64,000 bases of DNA from Dehalococcoidia bacterium (GTDB taxonomy: Bacteria; Chloroflexota; Dehalococcoidia; UBA2979): assembly GCA_003599735.1 (NCBI GenBank), contig QZJI01000016.1, positions 1,923 to 65,922 on the forward strand. The letters run 5' to 3'. Within the stretch, counting starts at the first letter, position 1; each line of letters opens with the position of its first letter. The notes below the pieces were generated by a model, which was not told where the DNA came from, ran no database searches, and saw only the letters and a program-made list of their open reading frames with translations. The translations under genes and the position numbers were made by a program. Shown one piece after another: positions 7,474 through 60,138 of the stretch.

Positions 7474-8769
7474 ATGGCATGGAGCGGATCGAGGCCGGGC
7501 GGTGCGCCCGCGGTCGGCGGCTCGCGCTGGGGTGCGCTCTCGTCCGGGCCCTTCCGTCTCTACTGGGTCGCGATGTTCTCACGTGTCTTTGGTTTGCAGT
7601 TCCGCTTCATCGGCACGGGCTGGCTCGTCGCCTCGAAGGACGGGCTCGACATGGACCCGCTCTGGATCGGGATCGTCGCCATATCCTCGGCGGTCCCTAC
7701 CATCGTGCTCAGTGTCCCGGCGGGCATCCTGGCGGACCGGTACGAGCACCGAAAGATCCTGTTCTGGTCGCAGAGCCTGACGGCCGTCTCCAGTTTCGCA
7801 CTTGCGCTTGCGGTCATCGGCGGCGTTGTGAACATCTGGATGGTGATCGCGTGGGGCGTCTTCACCGGCGCCCTGGCGGCACTGGCCAACCCTGCCTATA
7901 GCGCGATTCTGCCGAGGTTGATCGATATGCGTTCGATGGCGAGCGCGGTGGCGATGGTGTCCACGGTGTGGAACACGATGCGGGTGGTGGGGCCCGCGGC
8001 GGCCGGGGTGCTGATCGCGGTCATCGGCATCGGCCAGGCGTTTTTTGTGACGGCGGCCGGGTTCGCCCTTTCCACCCTCCTACTGCAGATGGTCACGTTG
8101 AAGCCGGTCGCACCTCGGCCGGCCGGACCGGACGGCGGAATGCTCGAAGGCATCCGGCACATCGCGCGGGAGCCGATTTTCCTCGCGACGATCGGGCTGT
8201 CCTTCTTCACATCGGTATTTGGTGGGTCGTATCAGGCCCTGCTGCCGATCTTCGCTGATGACATCCTCAAGGTCGGACCGACCGGGTTCGGATGGATGGA
8301 GGCCGCGGCGGGCATTGGTGGGTTCCTTGGGACGTTTGCGATCATCCGCATCGGGACCGGTGGCCGTGCCGGGGTGGTGATGTCGGTCGCGGCCGCGCTG
8401 TTCGGGGTGTGCATCGCCGGCTTCGCCTACTCGCGAGTATTCCCGCTGTCGCTTGCCCTGCTCTTCGCGGGCGGCTTTGCCTCTTCGATGTACCTCAACC
8501 TAGGGATGACGACGCTACAGCTGCGTGTGCCGGATGAGCTCCGGGGCCGCGTGATGGGCGTGTGGTCGATGACCTACTTCATGGCGCAGCTGGGGGGCCT
8601 CCCCGCCGGCGCACTGGCCCAGTGGCTGGGTGCTCCGGCAGCCGTCGCCATTGGTGCGCTCTCCGTAACGGCGTTCGCATTGATTGTCCTGGCCTCGGCG
8701 CCGGCACTGCGGCAGATGTCCACGATGGCCGTTGCAGGGACCGCCGGCGCTTCGGGCGGCGGCGGGTAA
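7474..8769 (+). CDS. MFS transporter
   Basis: 431 aa, roughly 12 hydrophobic segments, with an MFS-type GILADRYEHRK loop between TM2 and TM3. Confidence 0.85.
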   Translation: MAWSGSRPGGAPAVGGSRWGALSSGPFRLYWVAMFSRVFGLQFRFIGTGWLVASKDGLDMDPLWIGIVAISSAVPTIVLSVPAGILADRYEHRKILFWSQSLTAVSSFALALAVIGGVVNIWMVIAWGVFTGALAALANPAYSAILPRLIDMRSMASAVAMVSTVWNTMRVVGPAAAGVLIAVIGIGQAFFVTAAGFALSTLLLQMVTLKPVAPRPAGPDGGMLEGIRHIAREPIFLATIGLSFFTSVFGGSYQALLPIFADDILKVGPTGFGWMEAAAGIGGFLGTFAIIRIGTGGRAGVVMSVAAALFGVCIAGFAYSRVFPLSLALLFAGGFASSMYLNLGMTTLQLRVPDELRGRVMGVWSMTYFMAQLGGLPAGALAQWLGAPAAVAIGALSVTAFALIVLASAPALRQMSTMAVAGTAGASGGGG

Positions 8770-9429: not shown

Positions 9430-11130
9430 ATGAGCAGTAAGAACCTCGTCGTCCGGTTCGCGGGTGAAGGCGGACAGGGCGTCGTCGGTGGGGCCGACCT
9501 GATGGCCTCCGCCGCAGCCACGGGCGGCTACCATGTCCTGACCTTCTCCACATTCCCTTCCCAGATCAAGGGCGGCCCCGCGTGGGGTCAGGCGCGCGTC
9601 TCCAGCGAGCCCATCCTGACGCCTGGCGACTGGCTGGACGTGCTGGTCGCGCAGAATCAGTACGCCTATGACACCAACCTTCCGGACCTCCGTGAGGGCG
9701 GCATCGTCGTCTACAACTCGGAAGAGTTCGAGGTGACGGGCAATAGTCGTGCCTACGGCATTGCCGCCGACAAGATGGCGCGCGAGGCAGGTAACCCGCT
9801 GGCCTCCACCATCATTCTGATCGGTGCTGTCGCACAGATGGCGAGCATCGACCTCGGCGCGATTGAGGCGTTCATCGTCAAGCGCTGGAGTCGCGGCCGG
9901 GCGAGCGACAAGCAAATCATCGACGGCAACATCGCGGCTCTGCGGATGGGCGCGGAAGAGGGCAAGAAGTCTGGCCTCGCCGTCACCCCGCTTGATCCGC
10001 CGCCCACGCACGGCGAGCCACGCGTGATGATCCGCGGTTTCGAGGCGGCCTGTCTCGGGGCAATGGCGGCCGGCCTCGACACGTTCATCGGCTACCCGAT
10101 CTCCCCGGCCACCACCATGCTCACGTTCATGGAACAGAACCTGGTTGGGGTAGATAAGTTTGTCGGACAATCCTCTTCCGAGATTGAGTCGATTGCCGCA
10201 TTGGTGGGGTCGGGCTTCGCCGGCCGTAAGGTGATGACCTCCACGGCCGGCCCCGGCCTCAGCCTGATGGGCGAGGGTTTGGGCCTCGCGTGGATGGCGG
10301 AAATTCCTCTGGTCGTCGTGGACGTGCAGCGAGGCGGCCCCGCCACCGGCCTGCCGACGAAGACCGAGCAGTCCGACCTTTATGCCGCGATCAACCCTGG
10401 CCACGGCGACATGAGCATCCCGGTCATTGCCCCCGGCAATCCGGAAGAGGCATTCTGGGCCGCTGGTCATGCTGTCAACTGGGCGGAGCGGTATCAGGGC
10501 CCGGTCATCCTGCTCTCAGAGGCCTCCATCGCGGAGCGCGCGCAGGACATTGCGATTCCGGACGCCTCAAAAGTGAAGCAAGAGTACCGGACGGTTTCCG
10601 ATGGCAAAGTGGGAAACCGCCGCTACGCCGGCGACGGCGTGACGCCGTTCCCTGTCCCCGGTGGCCCCGGGGCCTACGTGGCGAACGGCTCTGAGCACGA
10701 CGAGGAGGGCGACACCACCCACCTTCCGGGTATCCACGTCCAGATGACGGATCGTCGCTTCGCCAAGCTGAAGGTGCTGGAAGACGGCACGTTCGAGGCG
10801 GAGCGCACCAGCGCTTCGGTCGCTCTGCTCCCGTGGGGCGGCTCGAAAGGTTCCGCGCTGGCGGCGTGGCGGGAGCTCACAGCGGAAGGCGTGGACCTCG
10901 GCTGGTATTACACGATGTTCCTGAACCCGATGCCCCCGGCGCTGCTGGAAGCATTGAAGGCGAAGCGTCTGGTGCTCGTGCCGGAACTCAACTACCTCGG
11001 ACAGCTCGCGTCGCGGCTGCGCTCCATGGGCGTCAATGCGCAGGCGATCACCCAGTACACCGGCCTGCCGTTCAAGGAGGCGGACCTGAAGTCTGCCATT
11101 CGAGAACAGATGGGCGCGTTGGTCAAGTAA
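9430..11130 (+). CDS. korA: 2-oxoacid:ferredoxin oxidoreductase, alpha (fused gamma-alpha) subunit
   Basis: The N-terminal FAGEGGQGVV gamma-type domain is followed by an alpha domain (GYPISPAT, SSEIESIA). ATG 9430 sits behind GGAGCAGGGAAG. Confidence 0.9.
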   Translation: MSSKNLVVRFAGEGGQGVVGGADLMASAAATGGYHVLTFSTFPSQIKGGPAWGQARVSSEPILTPGDWLDVLVAQNQYAYDTNLPDLREGGIVVYNSEEFEVTGNSRAYGIAADKMAREAGNPLASTIILIGAVAQMASIDLGAIEAFIVKRWSRGRASDKQIIDGNIAALRMGAEEGKKSGLAVTPLDPPPTHGEPRVMIRGFEAACLGAMAAGLDTFIGYPISPATTMLTFMEQNLVGVDKFVGQSSSEIESIAALVGSGFAGRKVMTSTAGPGLSLMGEGLGLAWMAEIPLVVVDVQRGGPATGLPTKTEQSDLYAAINPGHGDMSIPVIAPGNPEEAFWAAGHAVNWAERYQGPVILLSEASIAERAQDIAIPDASKVKQEYRTVSDGKVGNRRYAGDGVTPFPVPGGPGAYVANGSEHDEEGDTTHLPGIHVQMTDRRFAKLKVLEDGTFEAERTSASVALLPWGGSKGSALAAWRELTAEGVDLGWYYTMFLNPMPPALLEALKAKRLVLVPELNYLGQLASRLRSMGVNAQAITQYTGLPFKEADLKSAIREQMGALVK

Positions 11131-40642: not shown

Positions 40643-42058
40643 TCAGACCGCGGCTTCGGCCGCCGCGCGCAGCCGTGCCACGTACTCCGCCCGCCGCGCC
40701 CCGCGTGCCCCCTCGGGTGCGGTCGCGTGGCCGATCACGCAGTTCGTCGACTCCATGATCACGTCGATCATACGCAGCCGGTTGGCCCGCAGCGTCGTCC
40801 CCGTCTCGGTGCCCTCGATCAGGATCTCGGCGTCTTCCGGCACGAAGCCCTCTGACGCGCCGGAAATGGGGATGACCCGGTACCGGCCGAGGTGGCGCGT
40901 CCGTGCGTACTCGTCTGCGAGGCTCGCGTATTCGGAGGCGACGCGGATCGGGAACTCCGGGTCATCGCGCCGCCAGAGCGCGATCGCCTCCTCGATGTTC
41001 TCCACCGGGAGGTCCTCGCTGATCACGGCGCCCATCTGGTATTTCGACCGCTTCAGGTCGCACAGCTCCGTCACCGGCGCGGCCGGGAACGTTGCGAGGA
41101 ACGCGCGCAGCCAGTCCCGTCCGCTGATCGCGAGGTCGAAATGGCCGAGGGCGACCGCCCGTGGCATGTCCTGCGGCCGCATCACTTTCACCTCGATCCC
41201 TGGGTCGCCCGATTCCGGATACCGCACGGACGAGGTCGCCTCGTACCCGGGGAACGCGATGCCCGCGTCCGCGAGCGCGGCGACGGTGTGGCGCTGCGCG
41301 TGCCCGTCCGGCACGGCGATACGGAACCGCTCGCGCGCCGGGGCGACCGTCGAGGTCCCGCGCGTGACCGCGAGCGGTGTCGGGTCGACGAGGCCGCCCT
41401 CGGCCGTCGCCCGCGCCAGCGACAGCAGCGGCCCAAGCGCCGCCGAGAGGTCGCGGGTCGCGAGCGCCTCGCGGTTCGCGATCAGCCAGACCCCGCTCCG
41501 GTGGACGGTGCCGAGGACCGCGAGCCCCTCCTTCGCCACGGCCGAGGCCGGGGCGATGGCGAGTTCGGCGTCGCGCGGCGGCCACGCCTCGGCCTGTGCC
41601 CAGACTTCGTAGAGCCGGTAGTCCGGGACGCGCAGCCGCGTCAGATAGTGGTGGGCGATCTGCGGGTACTCGGTCGCGACACGCACGATGCCCGCGCCCG
41701 CGAGGCTCGCGAGGTCCGCTCCCGGCGCGCCCGCGACCACCAGCGTTTCACCCTCGATGTCGAGCGGACGCAGCGGTACCACGGAGTCGTGTCGATAGCG
41801 CACCAGCAGCTCGTCGATCCACGTCCCGCTTGCGATGCCGAGGTCGTACTGGCCGAGGGCTACCTGGATCGGGATGTCCTGGTCGGAGAAGACGCGCACC
41901 TGCACGCCCTCGATCCCGTCGACGTCGAAGCGGTACGTGCGCGAACCTTCGAGGTAGCCCTGCGCGCGGAACCCCGCAGCCGCCAGGCGCTCACCGACCG
42001 GCGTGCGCAGGTCGCCCCGTGGCACCGCCACGCGCACTGGACGCGTCGAGGCACTCAC
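40643..42058 (-). CDS. hisG: ATP phosphoribosyltransferase, internally duplicated (two HisG catalytic-fold modules)
   Basis: The halves align: VRVAVPRGDL.../FRIAVPDGHA..., IPIQVALGQYDLGIASG/MPRAVALGHFDLAISG, RVATEYPQIA/RVASEYASLA. Only the C-terminal half carries the PRPP loop EGTETGTTLRANRL (40775-40816). GTG 42058 overlaps the hisZ stop (GTGA). Confidence 0.8.
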   Translation of the reverse strand: MSASTRPVRVAVPRGDLRTPVGERLAAAGFRAQGYLEGSRTYRFDVDGIEGVQVRVFSDQDIPIQVALGQYDLGIASGTWIDELLVRYRHDSVVPLRPLDIEGETLVVAGAPGADLASLAGAGIVRVATEYPQIAHHYLTRLRVPDYRLYEVWAQAEAWPPRDAELAIAPASAVAKEGLAVLGTVHRSGVWLIANREALATRDLSAALGPLLSLARATAEGGLVDPTPLAVTRGTSTVAPARERFRIAVPDGHAQRHTVAALADAGIAFPGYEATSSVRYPESGDPGIEVKVMRPQDMPRAVALGHFDLAISGRDWLRAFLATFPAAPVTELCDLKRSKYQMGAVISEDLPVENIEEAIALWRRDDPEFPIRVASEYASLADEYARTRHLGRYRVIPISGASEGFVPEDAEILIEGTETGTTLRANRLRMIDVIMESTNCVIGHATAPEGARGARRAEYVARLRAAAEAAV

Positions 42059-43041
42059 GATGCGACCTCGGCGAGACGCAGGAGGTCGGCGCCCCATCCG
42101 CACGCGGGCGCGGCCGCGCCGCCCAGCGTCTGGGTGAGGCCGTCGTACCGTCCGCCCCCGAGGAGGGTGCGTCCGTCCGTGCCGGAGCCTTGGCGGAACC
42201 GGAACGTCACGCCGCTGTAGTACTCGAAGTTACGCGCCGTCGCGGCCAGCACCCGGTACGGCACGCCCGTGCCATCAAGCGCCGCCGCCGTCCGTGCGAG
42301 GTCATCGATGGGCGCGGCCGCGGCCGGCACCGTGGCGAGCATCGCCGCGCGCAGGTTCTGGATGTAGCCGGCCGATGCACCATCGACACCGGTGAGCAGC
42401 CGCAGGCTCGCGGCCTGGTCCGGGTGTGCCTGCGCGAGCCGTTCTGTGACGCCCGCGTCGCCCTCTAGCATCAGGTCGTACGCTTCCACCTGCTGCGTGG
42501 GAGATAGCCCGGCAGCGGCGAACGCGGCGCGTACCAGCCCCGCGTGCGCGAGGTCGACCGTGAAGTCGCCTCCGCTGAGGCCGCGCAGGAACGTCGCGGC
42601 GAGCGTCAGCAGTTCCGCATCGCCCTCAGCGGCAGCGGGGCCGAAGAGCTCGACGCCGCATTGCCAGACCTCGCGGTCGCCGTCCACGGCGAAGCGGTAG
42701 ACCGGGGCGACGTACGCGACGCGCGCTGTCGAGGATCCCCCCGCGCGGACCGCGTCGGCGTACCAGCGCGCCGCGGCGACCGTCGCGTCCGGCCGGAGCA
42801 CGACTCGCTCGCCGCTCCACCCGTCCCAGTCGAGGAAGGAATACACGCGTTCCAACGCTTGTGGGGAGAGCGTCCCGGCCGCCGTGTAGAGGTGCAGCGG
42901 CTCGATCGTCGGCGTCCGGATCTCGAGATAGCCCGCGCCTTCGACAGCATCGAGGAACCGCCGCTCGACCGCGCGGAACCGCCGCATCTCCGCCGGGCCG
43001 AAGTCGCGCATACCGGGGCTGTGGAGGCCTCGATCGGGCAT
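42055..43041 (-). CDS. hisZ: ATP phosphoribosyltransferase regulatory subunit (HisRS paralog)
   Basis: PGMRDFGP...LRPDATVAAARW class II aaRS-like core without an anticodon-binding domain. ATG 43041 follows a GAGGAG SD with 6-nt spacing. The upstream 100 codons of the track ORF are Arg/Thr-rich non-coding leader. Confidence 0.85.
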   Translation of the reverse strand: MPDRGLHSPGMRDFGPAEMRRFRAVERRFLDAVEGAGYLEIRTPTIEPLHLYTAAGTLSPQALERVYSFLDWDGWSGERVVLRPDATVAAARWYADAVRAGGSSTARVAYVAPVYRFAVDGDREVWQCGVELFGPAAAEGDAELLTLAATFLRGLSGGDFTVDLAHAGLVRAAFAAAGLSPTQQVEAYDLMLEGDAGVTERLAQAHPDQAASLRLLTGVDGASAGYIQNLRAAMLATVPAAAAPIDDLARTAAALDGTGVPYRVLAATARNFEYYSGVTFRFRQGSGTDGRTLLGGGRYDGLTQTLGGAAAPACGWGADLLRLAEVAS

Positions 43042-43150
43042 GGACGGCTCCTCGGCTGTGGTGCGTCGCGGGGCGGACGGGTTCGCGGTCATTCTACGGG
43101 CCTCACTCTCTGACGGGTGCGGGACATCGAGGTCGGCGGGACACGGTAAT

Positions 43151-43179
43151 GCGCCCGCGACGGCCTGCCGTCGTGGCGC
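43151..43179 (-). terminator. attenuator terminator hairpin (segments 3:4) of the his leader
   Basis: GCGCCACGACGGC (43179-43167) pairs with GCCGTCGCGGGCGC (43164-51), about 11 bp with one mismatch and one bulge. Segment 3 can alternatively pair over 13 bp with GCCGTCGTGCGCGC (43235-43222). Confidence 0.5.
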
Positions 43180-43207
43180 TCCTGCGTGCCTGGATCGGTT
43201 GGATCGG

Positions 43208-43309
43208 CTAGCGGTGCAGACGCGCGCACGACGGCGTGCCATGCGCATGAGCCGCGTGGGCGGAGTGCGCGTGGCCGGCGTGCGCGTGGACGAAGTGCGT
43301 CTGTCGCAT
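43208..43309 (-). CDS. hisL: his operon leader peptide candidate (33 aa, 9 His)
   Basis: Translates to MRQTHFVHAHAGHAHSAHAAHAHGTPSCARLHR. Eight of the nine His codons fall in a 19-codon window. It lies 167 nt upstream of hisZ. There is no SD, but a -10-like box ends 9 nt before the ATG. Confidence 0.55.
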   Translation of the reverse strand: MRQTHFVHAHAGHAHSAHAAHAHGTPSCARLHR

Positions 43310-43318
43310 GATGAATCG

Positions 43319-43347
43319 AGGCTACGGGTGCCCTCGGTTACCGGCAA
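43319..43347 (-). promoter_or_regulatory. promoter candidate for the his leader (TTGCCG-17 nt-TAGCCT)
   Basis: On the minus strand, TTGCCG lies at 43347-43342 and TAGCCT at 43324-43319. The ATG of the leader ORF begins 9 nt downstream, which would give a leaderless or near-leaderless transcript. Confidence 0.3.
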
Positions 43348-43348
43348 C

Positions 43349-44128
43349 CTACCGTCGGATCGTCGTCACGTCCCCGGCTGCGAACGCGCGGCGCGTGCCA
43401 TCGGCCAGCGCCAGCACCAGTTCACCCGTCGAGGTCACGTCCACCGCTTCGCCCTCGACCTCTCCGGAAGGCGTCGCGAGGCGCACCTGCTGCCCGATGG
43501 TGATCAACCGCGCCCGCCATTCCGCAAGCAGTGCCGCCGGCTCGGTCTCGGCCTGTGCCGCGCGCCGGTCGAATGCCGTCGACAGCGCCGCCAGCAGCAC
43601 CTCGCGGGGCGGGGCGGGGTGGCCCGCTCCTTCGATGCTCGTGGCGATTGCCCCTACCTCCGGCGGCAGCTCCGGGGCGGTACGAAGGTTGATCCCGATT
43701 CCCACAAACACGTCCAGGGCTGTCCCGCGTGGCCGCGCTTCGGCCAGGATGCCCGCCAGTTTCTTGCCCTTCACCTGGAGGTCGTTCGGCCACTTCAGGT
43801 CGACGGCGAGTCCGCACGCCGCCTGGATCGCCTCGGCGGCCGCGACCGCGGCGGCCAGCCCGAGCAGCGGTGCTCCCTCCGCCCGCGTGGGACAGAGGTG
43901 GTAGGTCACGTACAGCCCCGCAGCGGCGGCGGATACCCACGAGCGACCCTGGCGGCCGCGACCGGCGCTCTGCTCACCTGCCATGTACGCGGTGCCGCAC
44001 GGACGCCCCTCGGCTGCCCCCTCCCGCGCGTCGTCCATTGTCGATGTCGTCGTTTCGACGTACACCACCTCTGCACCCACGCGGGAGGAGTGGCGAAGGC
44101 TGTGGTAGCGGGCGAGGTCGAACGGCAT
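43349..44128 (-). CDS. birA: biotin-[acetyl-CoA-carboxylase] ligase (group I, no HTH domain)
   Basis: GRGRQGRSW biotin-binding loop and DLKWPNDL. At 259 aa it has no N-terminal repressor domain. Confidence 0.88.
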   Translation of the reverse strand: MPFDLARYHSLRHSSRVGAEVVYVETTTSTMDDAREGAAEGRPCGTAYMAGEQSAGRGRQGRSWVSAAAAGLYVTYHLCPTRAEGAPLLGLAAAVAAAEAIQAACGLAVDLKWPNDLQVKGKKLAGILAEARPRGTALDVFVGIGINLRTAPELPPEVGAIATSIEGAGHPAPPREVLLAALSTAFDRRAAQAETEPAALLAEWRARLITIGQQVRLATPSGEVEGEAVDVTSTGELVLALADGTRRAFAAGDVTTIRR

Positions 44129-44241: not shown

Positions 44242-44277
44242 GAGGGGCGTCCCCATGGGGACGCCCCTCCGTTTTGT
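44242..44277 (+). terminator. perfect 28-nt palindrome followed by CGTTTTGT on the plus strand (orphan intrinsic-terminator-like element)
   Basis: GAGGGGCGTCCCCA/TGGGGACGCCCCTC at 44242-44269, then a T tract at 44270-44277. On the minus strand it is preceded by an A tract and followed by only a few U. Confidence 0.5.
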
Positions 44278-59469: not shown

Positions 59470-60138
59470 ATGACCACGCTGGCGAACCCTCGCCTGACAC
59501 CCGTTTCAGATCCACAGCGGTCACCCGTGCCTGACGATATCCGCCGCCCGGTCGCGCCAGCCGCTCTGCTGCCGCTCTACGAGGTGCCTGCCGGTTGTGC
59601 GACTACCTACGAGGAGATCGCGGACTGCCCCGCGTGTGTCCTCGCTAAAACACGCTCGCGCACCGTCCCCGGTTCCGGACCGGCCCCGTGTGACCTGATG
59701 TTCATCGGCGAGGCGCCCGGCCAGCGTGAGGATGAGCTGGGCTTGCCCTTTGTAGGGCGCTCCGGGCAATTCCTGGATGATCTGCTAGCTTCAATCGGTC
59801 GGTCGCGCACAGATGTTTATGTCACGAATGTCGTAAAATGTCGCCCACCCGCGAACCGCGATCCGAACCCCGAGGAGATCGCTGCCTGTAGGGACTACCT
59901 CGACCGGCAGATCGCGCTGGTTGCGCCGCGTGTGATTGCCACGCTCGGACGGTTTTCAATGGCGAAATGGTTCCCGGCAGAGCGGATCAGTCAGATCCAC
60001 GGCCGCGCGGTGCAGCGTGACGGGCGGTGGATCGTGCCGATGTATCATCCGGCGGCGGCGTTGCGGGACGGCTCGCTGCGCGCCGTCATGAAGCAGGATT
60101 TCGCACAGATTCCATCGCTGCTCGCGGGGACGGTCTGA
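59470..60138 (+). CDS. udg: uracil-DNA glycosylase, family 4
   Basis: CPAC...GEAPGQREDELGLPFVGRSG, VYVTNVVKCRPP and HPAA motifs of family 4 (Fe-S) UDGs. ATG 59470 is preferred over 59416 because the first 18 codons of the longer ORF have poor GC3. Confidence 0.82.
   Translation: MTTLANPRLTPVSDPQRSPVPDDIRRPVAPAALLPLYEVPAGCATTYEEIADCPACVLAKTRSRTVPGSGPAPCDLMFIGEAPGQREDELGLPFVGRSGQFLDDLLASIGRSRTDVYVTNVVKCRPPANRDPNPEEIAACRDYLDRQIALVAPRVIATLGRFSMAKWFPAERISQIHGRAVQRDGRWIVPMYHPAAALRDGSLRAVMKQDFAQIPSLLAGTV

Follow-up and report, generated by a model that had tools for sequence, protein, structure and literature searches.

A candidate histidine leader-peptide attenuator upstream of hisZ in high-GC Dehalococcoidia

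What lies between birA and hisZ in the genome of a Dehalococcoidia bacterium (Chloroflexota, UBA2979), where one long open reading frame (ORF) appears to carry hisZ across the intergenic spacer, is the question raised by this locus. It is situated in a 64,000-nucleotide (nt) stretch of contig QZJI01000016.1 (assembly GCA_003599735.1), referred to below as the window; positions are counted from the first letter of the window, and features are on the minus strand unless marked (+). The initial annotation of the window had proposed that the spacer holds a short His-codon leader that chooses between two hairpins, formed by segment 2 with segment 3 (2:3) or by segment 3 with segment 4 (3:4), ahead of hisZ. 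That core reading gained support from about 40 relatives and from compensatory changes in the 2:3 helix, and the element is probably a leader-peptide attenuator that responds to charged tRNA-His and thereby controls read-through into a hisZ-hisG-orf-hisD-hisC-hisB-(hisN-like) operon. Judged by comparison of sequences, it is real, conserved, and unannotated in a clade of Dehalococcoidia with a high guanine-plus-cytosine (GC) content.

The leader ORF ('hisL', 43309..43208) comprises 33 codons followed by TAG and would encode the peptide MRQTHFVHAHAGHAHSAHAAHAHGTPSCARLHR, which contains a total of 9 His; it is located ahead of hisZ-G-D-C-B and is rich in codons for the cognate amino acid of that operon. 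The putative regulatory His-codon run occupies codons 5-23 (43241..43297) and includes 8 His (6 CAC and 2 CAT) in an H-x-H-x(-x)-H pattern. All the coordinates first assigned to this ORF, as well as the count of 8 His in 19 codons, were confirmed. When the 64 kb were translated in six frames, a density of 8 His per 19 codons was reached at two places only among 94,707 stop-free stretches of that size. The second place, 7935-7995 (HHPHRVPHRGHHRHRARHR), lies antisense within a 431-amino-acid (aa) ORF at 7474-8769 (+) and probably arises as an out-of-frame artefact in GC-rich coding sequence; another His-dense six-frame stretch is found at about 10074-10136 (+) (HVHRLPDLPGHHHAHVHGT).

The distribution of the element was established among HisZ homologues, which are abundant in Dehalococcoidia and Chloroflexota metagenome-assembled genomes (MAGs). 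The scan of species-representative genomes returned 80 hisZ loci with HisZ identities of 92-44%, nearly all at 65-78% GC, and the sequence up to 500 nt upstream of hisZ was searched frame by frame for at least 4 His per 12 codons. By this criterion, a short His-rich ORF was found upstream of hisZ in 34 of the loci. Alignment A3 was assembled from excerpts anchored on sequence motifs only, and alignment A6 was obtained with covariance model R1, for which 27 natural sequences and the structure of the 2:3 core were used. These replaced whole-spacer MAFFT alignments, which were dropped after A2 misplaced the L006 group and L030 and A4 misplaced L030; segment 3 was located by a motif anchor, RNAduplex being confused by near-palindromic CCGCGG cores. 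The R1 match in the window, which runs from segment 2 through the tail (43137..43236; 76.3 bits, E = 4e-11), is the only one with E<0.1 in the 64 kb, with no second copy. Besides the window, the model recovered the element at E<0.006 from 39 loci, and weakly from a further one, L014 (E = 0.12), with one copy per locus and every one just upstream of hisZ. Six of the loci had never been used earlier (L032, L038, L040, L051, L057, and L060), and several others were outside the seed. The carriers span HisZ identities of 92% to about 53%; most loci below about 52% are without the element, as are a few above that value (L021, L028, and L036). The His-codon run, whose conservation in related birA-hisZ spacers the initial annotation had suggested examining, is thus present in about 40 relatives. 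A DNA-pattern scan of metagenomes for segments 2-3-4 gave 120 matches, 119 of which were apparent chance occurrences without a His run; in GC-rich DNA, matches to the segment 2/3/4 pattern alone turn up by chance, and the scan was uninformative as a view of a wider regulon. Its sole genuine element, L153 (metagenome contig Ga0302123_10053897, 1866-1947), has a His run of at least 4 His, a leader ending in MDDRTALAMHAHTHGHVHAVPSRALRYR, and the tail CGTTTTTTGTG, and is close to L019.

The anatomy of the element is conserved among these relatives. In 35 sequences the leader ORF is 25-35 codons long, contains 4-9 His, and stays in frame from a promoter-proximal ATG (GTG once) through segment 2. 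The shared layout begins with TTGAYC, 17 nt, and TAnnnT, followed after 6-10 nt by the ATG, 4-12 variable codons, and 4-9 His mostly arranged as H-x-H; two codons later comes Pro-Ser-Arg-Ala, encoded by GCCGUCGCG (segment 2), and a stop codon is found 3-11 codons beyond. The segment 2 and segment 3 intervals are separated by 36-55 nt, and the 3' part consists of CGCCGCGACGGC, a short loop, and UCGCGGCG, then mostly TTTTTGTG or TTTCTGTG, with segment 3 conserved as CGCGACGGC. This conservation bears on the notion of a chance open frame in a GC-rich spacer, or of a true N-terminal extension of hisZ. Stops are rare at 70% GC, one further His-dense off-frame stretch exists in the window, and from TTG 43347 a 430-aa ORF extends across the spacer into hisZ; the Arg-rich hisZ extension of the ORF track, as the initial annotation had described it, is this very frame. 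The leader frame, however, differs from the hisZ frame, the spacers of the relatives contain stops and are not kept in frame by length, hisZ starts at a conserved ATG preceded by a Shine-Dalgarno sequence, and the His run, the promoter, and the hairpins persist in relatives whose HisZ identity ranges from 92% to as low as 53%. Contradicted in this way by the comparative data, a chance frame or extension is left with next to no probability.

The His codons themselves appear to be a feature under selection in the leader. The relatives maintain the His positions but differ in the residues between them (A, G, V, S, T, and others) and towards the N terminus, and differences in leader length always amount to whole codons. 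When the peptides were right-anchored on the Pro codon of segment 2, a His was present at position -3 (H-x-x-P) in 31/35, and His were also frequent at -5, -6, -8, -10, and -11. CAT accounts for 113/212 His codons in the leaders (53%) vs 6/124 (5%) in the adjacent hisZ genes, so that the codon preference is strikingly reversed at a local scale. It is these maintained positions, the H-x-x-P spacing, and the CAT bias that provide evidence for selection on the His codons; the bias itself could slow decoding of the regulatory codons, could reduce local GC and so keep a leaderless 5' end open, or could reflect local CAUG-containing pairings. The motif CCACGCG occurs four times within the His run of the window, which would suit a protein-binding array (operator), and a T-box or riboswitch in this region may be considered alongside it. 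As DNA, however, the repeat is not kept in the relatives, in which CAC and CAT synonyms alternate and the interleaved codons vary, and no Rfam family was matched at E<=10 in 42500-44000 or at the gathering score in 13 relatives. An operator array or a T-box/riboswitch is thus extremely improbable as an account of the locus.

The leader is preceded by a promoter-like sequence that has the same geometry throughout the clade. In the window, the -35 hexamer TTGCCG (43347-43342) starts 2 nt after the stop codon (43351-43349) of birA, a gene identified by Pfam/NCBIfam at 44128-43349, and is separated by 17 nt from the -10 hexamer TAGCCT (43324-43319), which is of the TAnnnT type and ends 9 nt before the ATG, leaving no space for a Shine-Dalgarno sequence. 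Among 35 leaders, TTG of the -35 hexamer is invariant (35/35; consensus TTGAYC), the spacer is 17 nt in 27/35 and 16-18 nt in all, and the -10 hexamer retains T1 in 34/35, A2 in 35/35, and T6 in 35/35. The distance from the -10 hexamer to the start codon (ATG/GTG) is 6-10 nt in 35/35, which places its first T 12-16 nt ahead of the ATG. A TAnnnT box some 12 nt ahead of the start codon has been described as a signature of leaderless genes in high-GC bacteria (PMC3160421), and a transcript start would therefore be expected 0-3 nt before the leader ATG. The geometry supports a leader transcript that is leaderless or nearly so, with its start site predicted from the hexamers; the initial annotation had already pointed to a leaderless transcript from TTGCCG-17-TAGCCT, and this arrangement turned out to be shared by all 35 leaders. 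A simple scan of the region for sigma-70 consensus promoters and for hairpin-plus-T-run terminators found none, the promoter scan because it does not accept the TAnnnT type. The only other site in the window with this promoter-to-start geometry is TTGCCC-17-TACCCT-6-ATG at 59470 (+); the frame that follows is open for at least 200 aa (600 nt read) and represents a candidate leaderless gene.

An ORF maintained in frame in 35 sequences, with H-x-H repeats that resemble metal-binding motifs, might also encode a functional His-rich micro-protein (for instance a metal-binding one) that merely happens to lie before hisZ. Conservation is limited, however, to the His positions and the residues encoded by segment 2, length and all other residues being free, and every leader ORF is accompanied by hisZ and a terminator-type hairpin. 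Four leader peptides matched no Pfam or NCBIfam family at E<=10, and an exact look-up of seven leader peptides in a collection of 15 billion proteins found none present, so they have never been called as genes there. As described below, the conserved 'PSRA' residues are explained by RNA pairing, including a compensated Ser-to-Pro change, and a micro-protein is very improbable compared with an attenuator leader.

Two mutually exclusive hairpins that share segment 3 follow the His run, and the 5' arm of the proposed antiterminator lies inside the end of the leader ORF. Segment 2 (43235-43222; GCCGTCGTGCGCGC) is this 5' arm, covers codons 25-30, and encodes (T)PSCAR; with its 9-nt core GCCGUCGUG (43235-43227), segment 2 is the most conserved stretch of the element. 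Segment 3 (43179-43167; GCGCCACGACGGC) is common to the 2:3 antiterminator and to the terminator-like 3:4 hairpin, whose 3' arm is segment 4 (43164-43151; GCCGTCGCGGGCGC). Segments 2-4 were thus found where the initial annotation had placed them, and the mutual exclusion of 2:3 and 3:4 that it described holds. In the window, the 2:3 hairpin folds at -40.2 kcal/mol (z = -4.4, 0/200 shuffles as good) and is included in the minimum-free-energy fold of the whole leader. The 3:4 hairpin consists of 5+6 base pairs (bp) with an internal loop and a 4-nt loop and folds at -21.1 kcal/mol (z = -3.8, 1/200 shuffles as good); a comparison of these two folds had been suggested with the initial annotation.

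The pairing potential of 2:3 is conserved, and compensatory changes occur in it. Its 9-bp core is paired in 97.4% of alignment cells, three pairs show compensatory changes in a total of 16 cells, and the covariation score was above all 500 shuffles, a count over related sequences that is not to be taken as a probability; sliding the partner lowered pairing to 25-71%. The changes comprise G:C to C:G in the L033 group, U:A to C:G in the L031 and L066 groups (7 sequences), and C:G to U:A in the group of the window, with U:G intermediates in L011 and L023. The sequence-anchored alignment A3 agrees with A6 on the helix, and RNAalifold run on A6 returned it independently. The U:A to C:G change converts a Ser codon of the leader to Pro and is compensated in segment 3, which argues that 'PSRA' is conserved through RNA pairing and not through peptide function. 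Where the shared base of segment 3 changes from A to G, its partner in segment 4 either changes from U to C or is kept as U in a G:U wobble; a change of one segment 3 base that is coupled with both segment 2 and segment 4 is what a shared segment predicts. For 3:4, 86.6% of positions are paired across 38 distinct sequences (94% for the inner 6 bp, against 28-62% when slid), and changes on both sides were seen in four pairs (6 cells). Covariation, also proposed as a check at the outset, was accordingly positive for 2:3 and modest for 3:4, and for segment 1, the putative upstream partner of segment 2, no conserved counterpart was found.

The 3:4 hairpin of most relatives has the textbook form of an intrinsic terminator, with a U tract behind the stem. 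Five or more T among the first 8 nt of the tail were counted in 25/40 elements, such as CTTTTTCTTG in L022, TTTTTTTGTG in L029, and CGTTTTTGTG in L008. The corresponding site in the window (43142..43150; ATTACCGTG), where relatives have U tracts such as TTTTTGTG, is degenerate; the four closest relatives of the window have 3-4 T/8, and L009, L015, L018, L020, and the L006 group are also poor. The missing clean U tract after 3:4, a caveat of the initial annotation, is therefore real and specific to the sub-clade of the window and a few others. Across the five genomes of the window clade, segments 2-4 are nearly identical while the tail drifts, which argues for constraint on the hairpins but not on the tail. 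Other parts of the window do contain canonical hairpin-plus-T-tail sites (e.g., 44242-44269 (+) and 19941-19925), and the genome has therefore not simply abandoned U tracts. The first of these, located in the spacer from an aminotransferase gene to birA, is a perfect 12-bp GC-rich palindromic hairpin, GAGGGGCGTCCCCATGGGGACGCCCCTC, followed by CGTTTTGTAG, and is the strongest terminator-like site of the window.

These tails raise the alternative that the His-stalling sensor is the same but that the output in the sub-clade of the window is Rho-dependent termination, pausing or RNA decay, or reduced translation of hisZ. The degenerate tail in the window and its four closest relatives, although segments 2-4 are nearly identical, speaks for such an output, as do the canonical terminators elsewhere in the window, which make the loss specific to the 3:4 site, and a hairpin that pairs CCUC with the GAGG of hisZ can be drawn. 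Masking of segment 2 in silico, however, produced no consistent change in the accessibility of the hisZ Shine-Dalgarno sequence in five clade members, the 4:5 and Shine-Dalgarno hairpins were no better than shuffles (z = -1.4 and -0.3), and the 3:4 hairpin of most relatives is a canonical terminator, which we take as the ancestral state. An altered output of this kind is on balance unlikely. A translational cascade, in which 3:4 would free a segment sequestering the hisZ Shine-Dalgarno sequence, was rejected on the same masking results and shuffle-like hairpins; the possible 4:5 hairpin of the window has a folding energy of -16.6 kcal/mol, with 21/200 shuffles as good. Within the attenuator interpretation, weak intrinsic termination at the long GC stem, Rho, or another process are options for the 'off' state of the window's copy.

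A different arrangement was observed in L006, L007, L010, and L014, about 150-250 nt upstream of hisZ: the promoter, the His leader, segment 2, and segment 3 (CCCGTGACGGC) are kept, the usual segment 4 and the U tract are missing, and segment 2- or 3-like copies lie downstream, such as CCGTCAC at a distance of 35 nt in L007. In these four loci, the part of the switch that gives the output may have been rebuilt.

The initial annotation had described a complete attenuator that also contained a 1:2 helix, with segment 1 (43286-43274; CGCGCACGCCGGC) inside the His run. The coordinates of segment 1 and its complementarity to segment 2 at 12/13 positions were reproduced, and a selected 1:2 helix was rejected. 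In the window, the 1:2 region folds at -38.0 kcal/mol (z = -1.7, 10/200 shuffles as good), and the complementarity gave z = -1.35 (p ~0.1) vs codon-shuffled leaders and z = -1.55 (p = 0.07) vs random genomic segments. The best duplex between segment 2 and the ORF upstream of it was then scored in each of the 35 leaders. Against 200 codon shuffles each, the mean z was -0.02 and the median p 0.42, and against 300 length-matched random segments drawn from the respective locus it was +0.52 (mean z), with 0/35 leaders at p<0.05; several leaders pair with segment 2 significantly worse than the genomic background does. The site that pairs best differs among leaders, lying anywhere from codon 2 to codon 23, and no position-conserved segment 1 exists. 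Where GC-rich DNA is packed with CAC-GCG codons, complementarity to GCGCGCG is to be expected to some degree.

In the mechanism that we propose, transcription would begin at the TTGnnn-17-TAnnnT promoter, 0-3 nt before the leader ATG, and a ribosome would initiate on the leaderless RNA and decode the His-x-His run. When His-tRNA is scarce, the ribosome would stall at one of the early or central His codons, ahead of segment 2, and the free segment 2 (GCCGUCGUG) could pair with segment 3 before segment 4 has been transcribed; 3:4 would be prevented by this 2:3 antiterminator (-40 kcal/mol), and RNA polymerase would continue. When His-tRNA is plentiful, the ribosome would cross segment 2 and reach the stop codon inside the 2-3 loop, which in the window is 8 codons past the Pro codon. 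A ribosome on or inside the loop would block 2:3, since a helix cannot close around it, and segment 3 would pair locally with the adjacent segment 4. As there is no 1:2 helix, termination would need active translation and untranslated RNA would default to read-through, which should be a difference from the trp and his leaders of E. coli. Translation of the leader ORF, the response to histidine, and an off state that operates in the window with no U tract are what we infer from the anatomy of the element.

Several points weigh against this interpretation. The tail of the window, ATTACCGTG, contains only 3 T/8 and no intrinsic terminator was called there, and intrinsic termination at the window's copy is doubtful. 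The covariation of 3:4 is modest, 18-52 of 500 shuffles equalling the observed values, and the L006/L007/L010/L014 sub-clade has no clear 3:4 hairpin. The 2:3 statistics derive from related sequences, and A6 was fitted to the 2:3 structure. A terminating ribosome would cover about 15 nt before the stop, not the 9-nt core of segment 2; it would cover only the 3' extension of segment 2, and the block would therefore act by enclosure and not by direct masking. With no 1:2 helix, the timing needs the ribosome to stay at the stop while segments 3 and 4 are made. Finally, all sources are MAGs, and the whole case is built on sequence evidence.

Downstream of the element, hisZ (42055..43092; PF13393, TIGR00443) starts with ATG at 43092-43090 after a GAGG at 43104-43101. 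Wherever a relative has the GTAGAATG motif (22/22), its upstream ATG shares the reading frame of the conserved MPDRGL start. The start itself (43090-43097, 22 loci) lies within the conserved motif GTAGAATG / GTACAATG / GTATCATG, whose TAnnAT part is -10-like, and a second, strongly Shine-Dalgarno-led ATG (GAGGAG-N6-ATG, MPDRGL) follows 9-31 codons further on, beyond a variable region of low complexity. These bases might serve as an internal promoter with a second start; a second promoter at the conserved TAGAAT before hisZ was nevertheless rejected, since no conserved -35 was seen by eye and the ATG was in frame in 22/22, and the bases were assigned to the hisZ start region.

The next gene, hisG (42103-40643; 486 aa), is a tandem-duplicated, fused short-form HisG adjoining hisZ: its halves, 1-245 and 246-486, are 29% identical (E = 1e-15), Pfam and TIGR00070 each match two stretches, and relatives in the PDB match the C-terminal half of the product only. 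It is followed by a 249-aa ORF without a Pfam/NCBIfam match (40620-39871) in the hisG-hisD interval, and by hisD (39920-38517), hisC (38516-37386), and hisB (37408-36785). After a gap of about 360 nt from hisB, an inositol-monophosphatase-family gene (36427-35618) closes the distal end of the his cluster and may encode a HisN-type histidinol-phosphatase. Genes hisH, hisA, hisF, and hisI were not among the neighbouring ORFs checked.

When compared to known systems, the element follows the logic of the enterobacterial his leader (hisL, Rfam RF00514 His_leader), whose leader peptide has 7 consecutive His. Both have a His-rich short ORF before the first his gene and an exclusive antiterminator/terminator, and both would sense charged tRNA-His through the position of the ribosome. 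In contrast to that leader, the element matches neither the RF00514 model nor the leader-peptide hidden Markov model, its His alternate with Ala, Gly, and Val and are not consecutive, it is predicted to be leaderless and not Shine-Dalgarno-led, it has no detectable 1:2 (A:B) helix, its first gene is hisZ and not a long-form hisG, and the copy in the window is without a U tract. The T-box(His) found ahead of his genes or hisS in Firmicutes and Actinobacteria likewise reads out tRNA-His charging from a position ahead of his genes; it binds uncharged tRNA directly with no need for translation, however, and no T-box match was found here.

The initial annotation knew of no description of an alternating His-Ala leader in a high-GC, HisZ-type operon, and the novelty claimed in this way was overstated: in PMC2965389, PMC9413887, and PMC4833913, attenuators with a His leader immediately ahead of hisZ are predicted for the Bacillus cereus group, Clostridioides/Peptostreptococcaceae, and Erysipelotrichales. 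A His leader in front of a HisZ-type operon is thus no novelty by itself, and the mechanism is the textbook one, with no concept overturned. As far as these descriptions go, the Firmicutes leaders share with ours the His leader peptide and the terminator/antiterminator before a HisZ-type operon and, like ours, rest on comparative genomics; they are set apart by low GC, by 3-5 consecutive His codons (PMC9413887), and by phylum, and a leaderless start, as predicted here, is not among the features that the descriptions mention. The actinobacterial leaderless attenuators offer another comparison. Leaderless trp, ilvB, and leuA leader peptides are known from Corynebacterium glutamicum. For mycobacteria, bioRxiv 10.1101/834739 describes polycysteine leaderless ORFs that attenuate operonic gene expression, and Corynebacterium his genes are elsewhere reported to be under a T-box. 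The similarities are a high-GC host, a short ORF at or close to the 5' end of the transcript under TAnnnT, and enrichment in cognate codons, whereas the actinobacterial examples concern Cys, Trp, or branched-chain amino acids and belong to another phylum. No description of a His leader attenuator in Chloroflexota was found in the searchable full-text literature, Rfam, or the protein-family libraries. A Russian survey by Lopatovskaya, Seliverstov, and Lyubetsky from 2010 is said to have covered many phyla. In PMC4833913, the Chloroflexi genomes are explicitly considered too few to judge.

The finding extends leader-peptide attenuation to Chloroflexota (Dehalococcoidia) at the strength given above and corrects the annotation of hisZ, for which the ORF track had absorbed the regulatory region; the R1 covariance model is ready for annotating these uncultured genomes. 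Of interest to specialists are the predicted leaderless start, the lack of a 1:2 helix, the CAT bias, and the erosion of the U tract in some lineages, including that of the window. About 40 natural variants, with or without a U tract, without 1:2, leaderless, and CAT-biased, form a series on the minimal needs of an attenuator. More tentatively, and with the odds rather against it, they may represent a minimal leaderless three-segment attenuator class with ribosome-in-loop termination, no 1:2 helix or superattenuation, CAU-tuned sensitivity, and a U-tract-free off-switch in the sub-clade of the window. If such an off-switch is true, it would mean a non-canonical termination or silencing step in these Chloroflexota.

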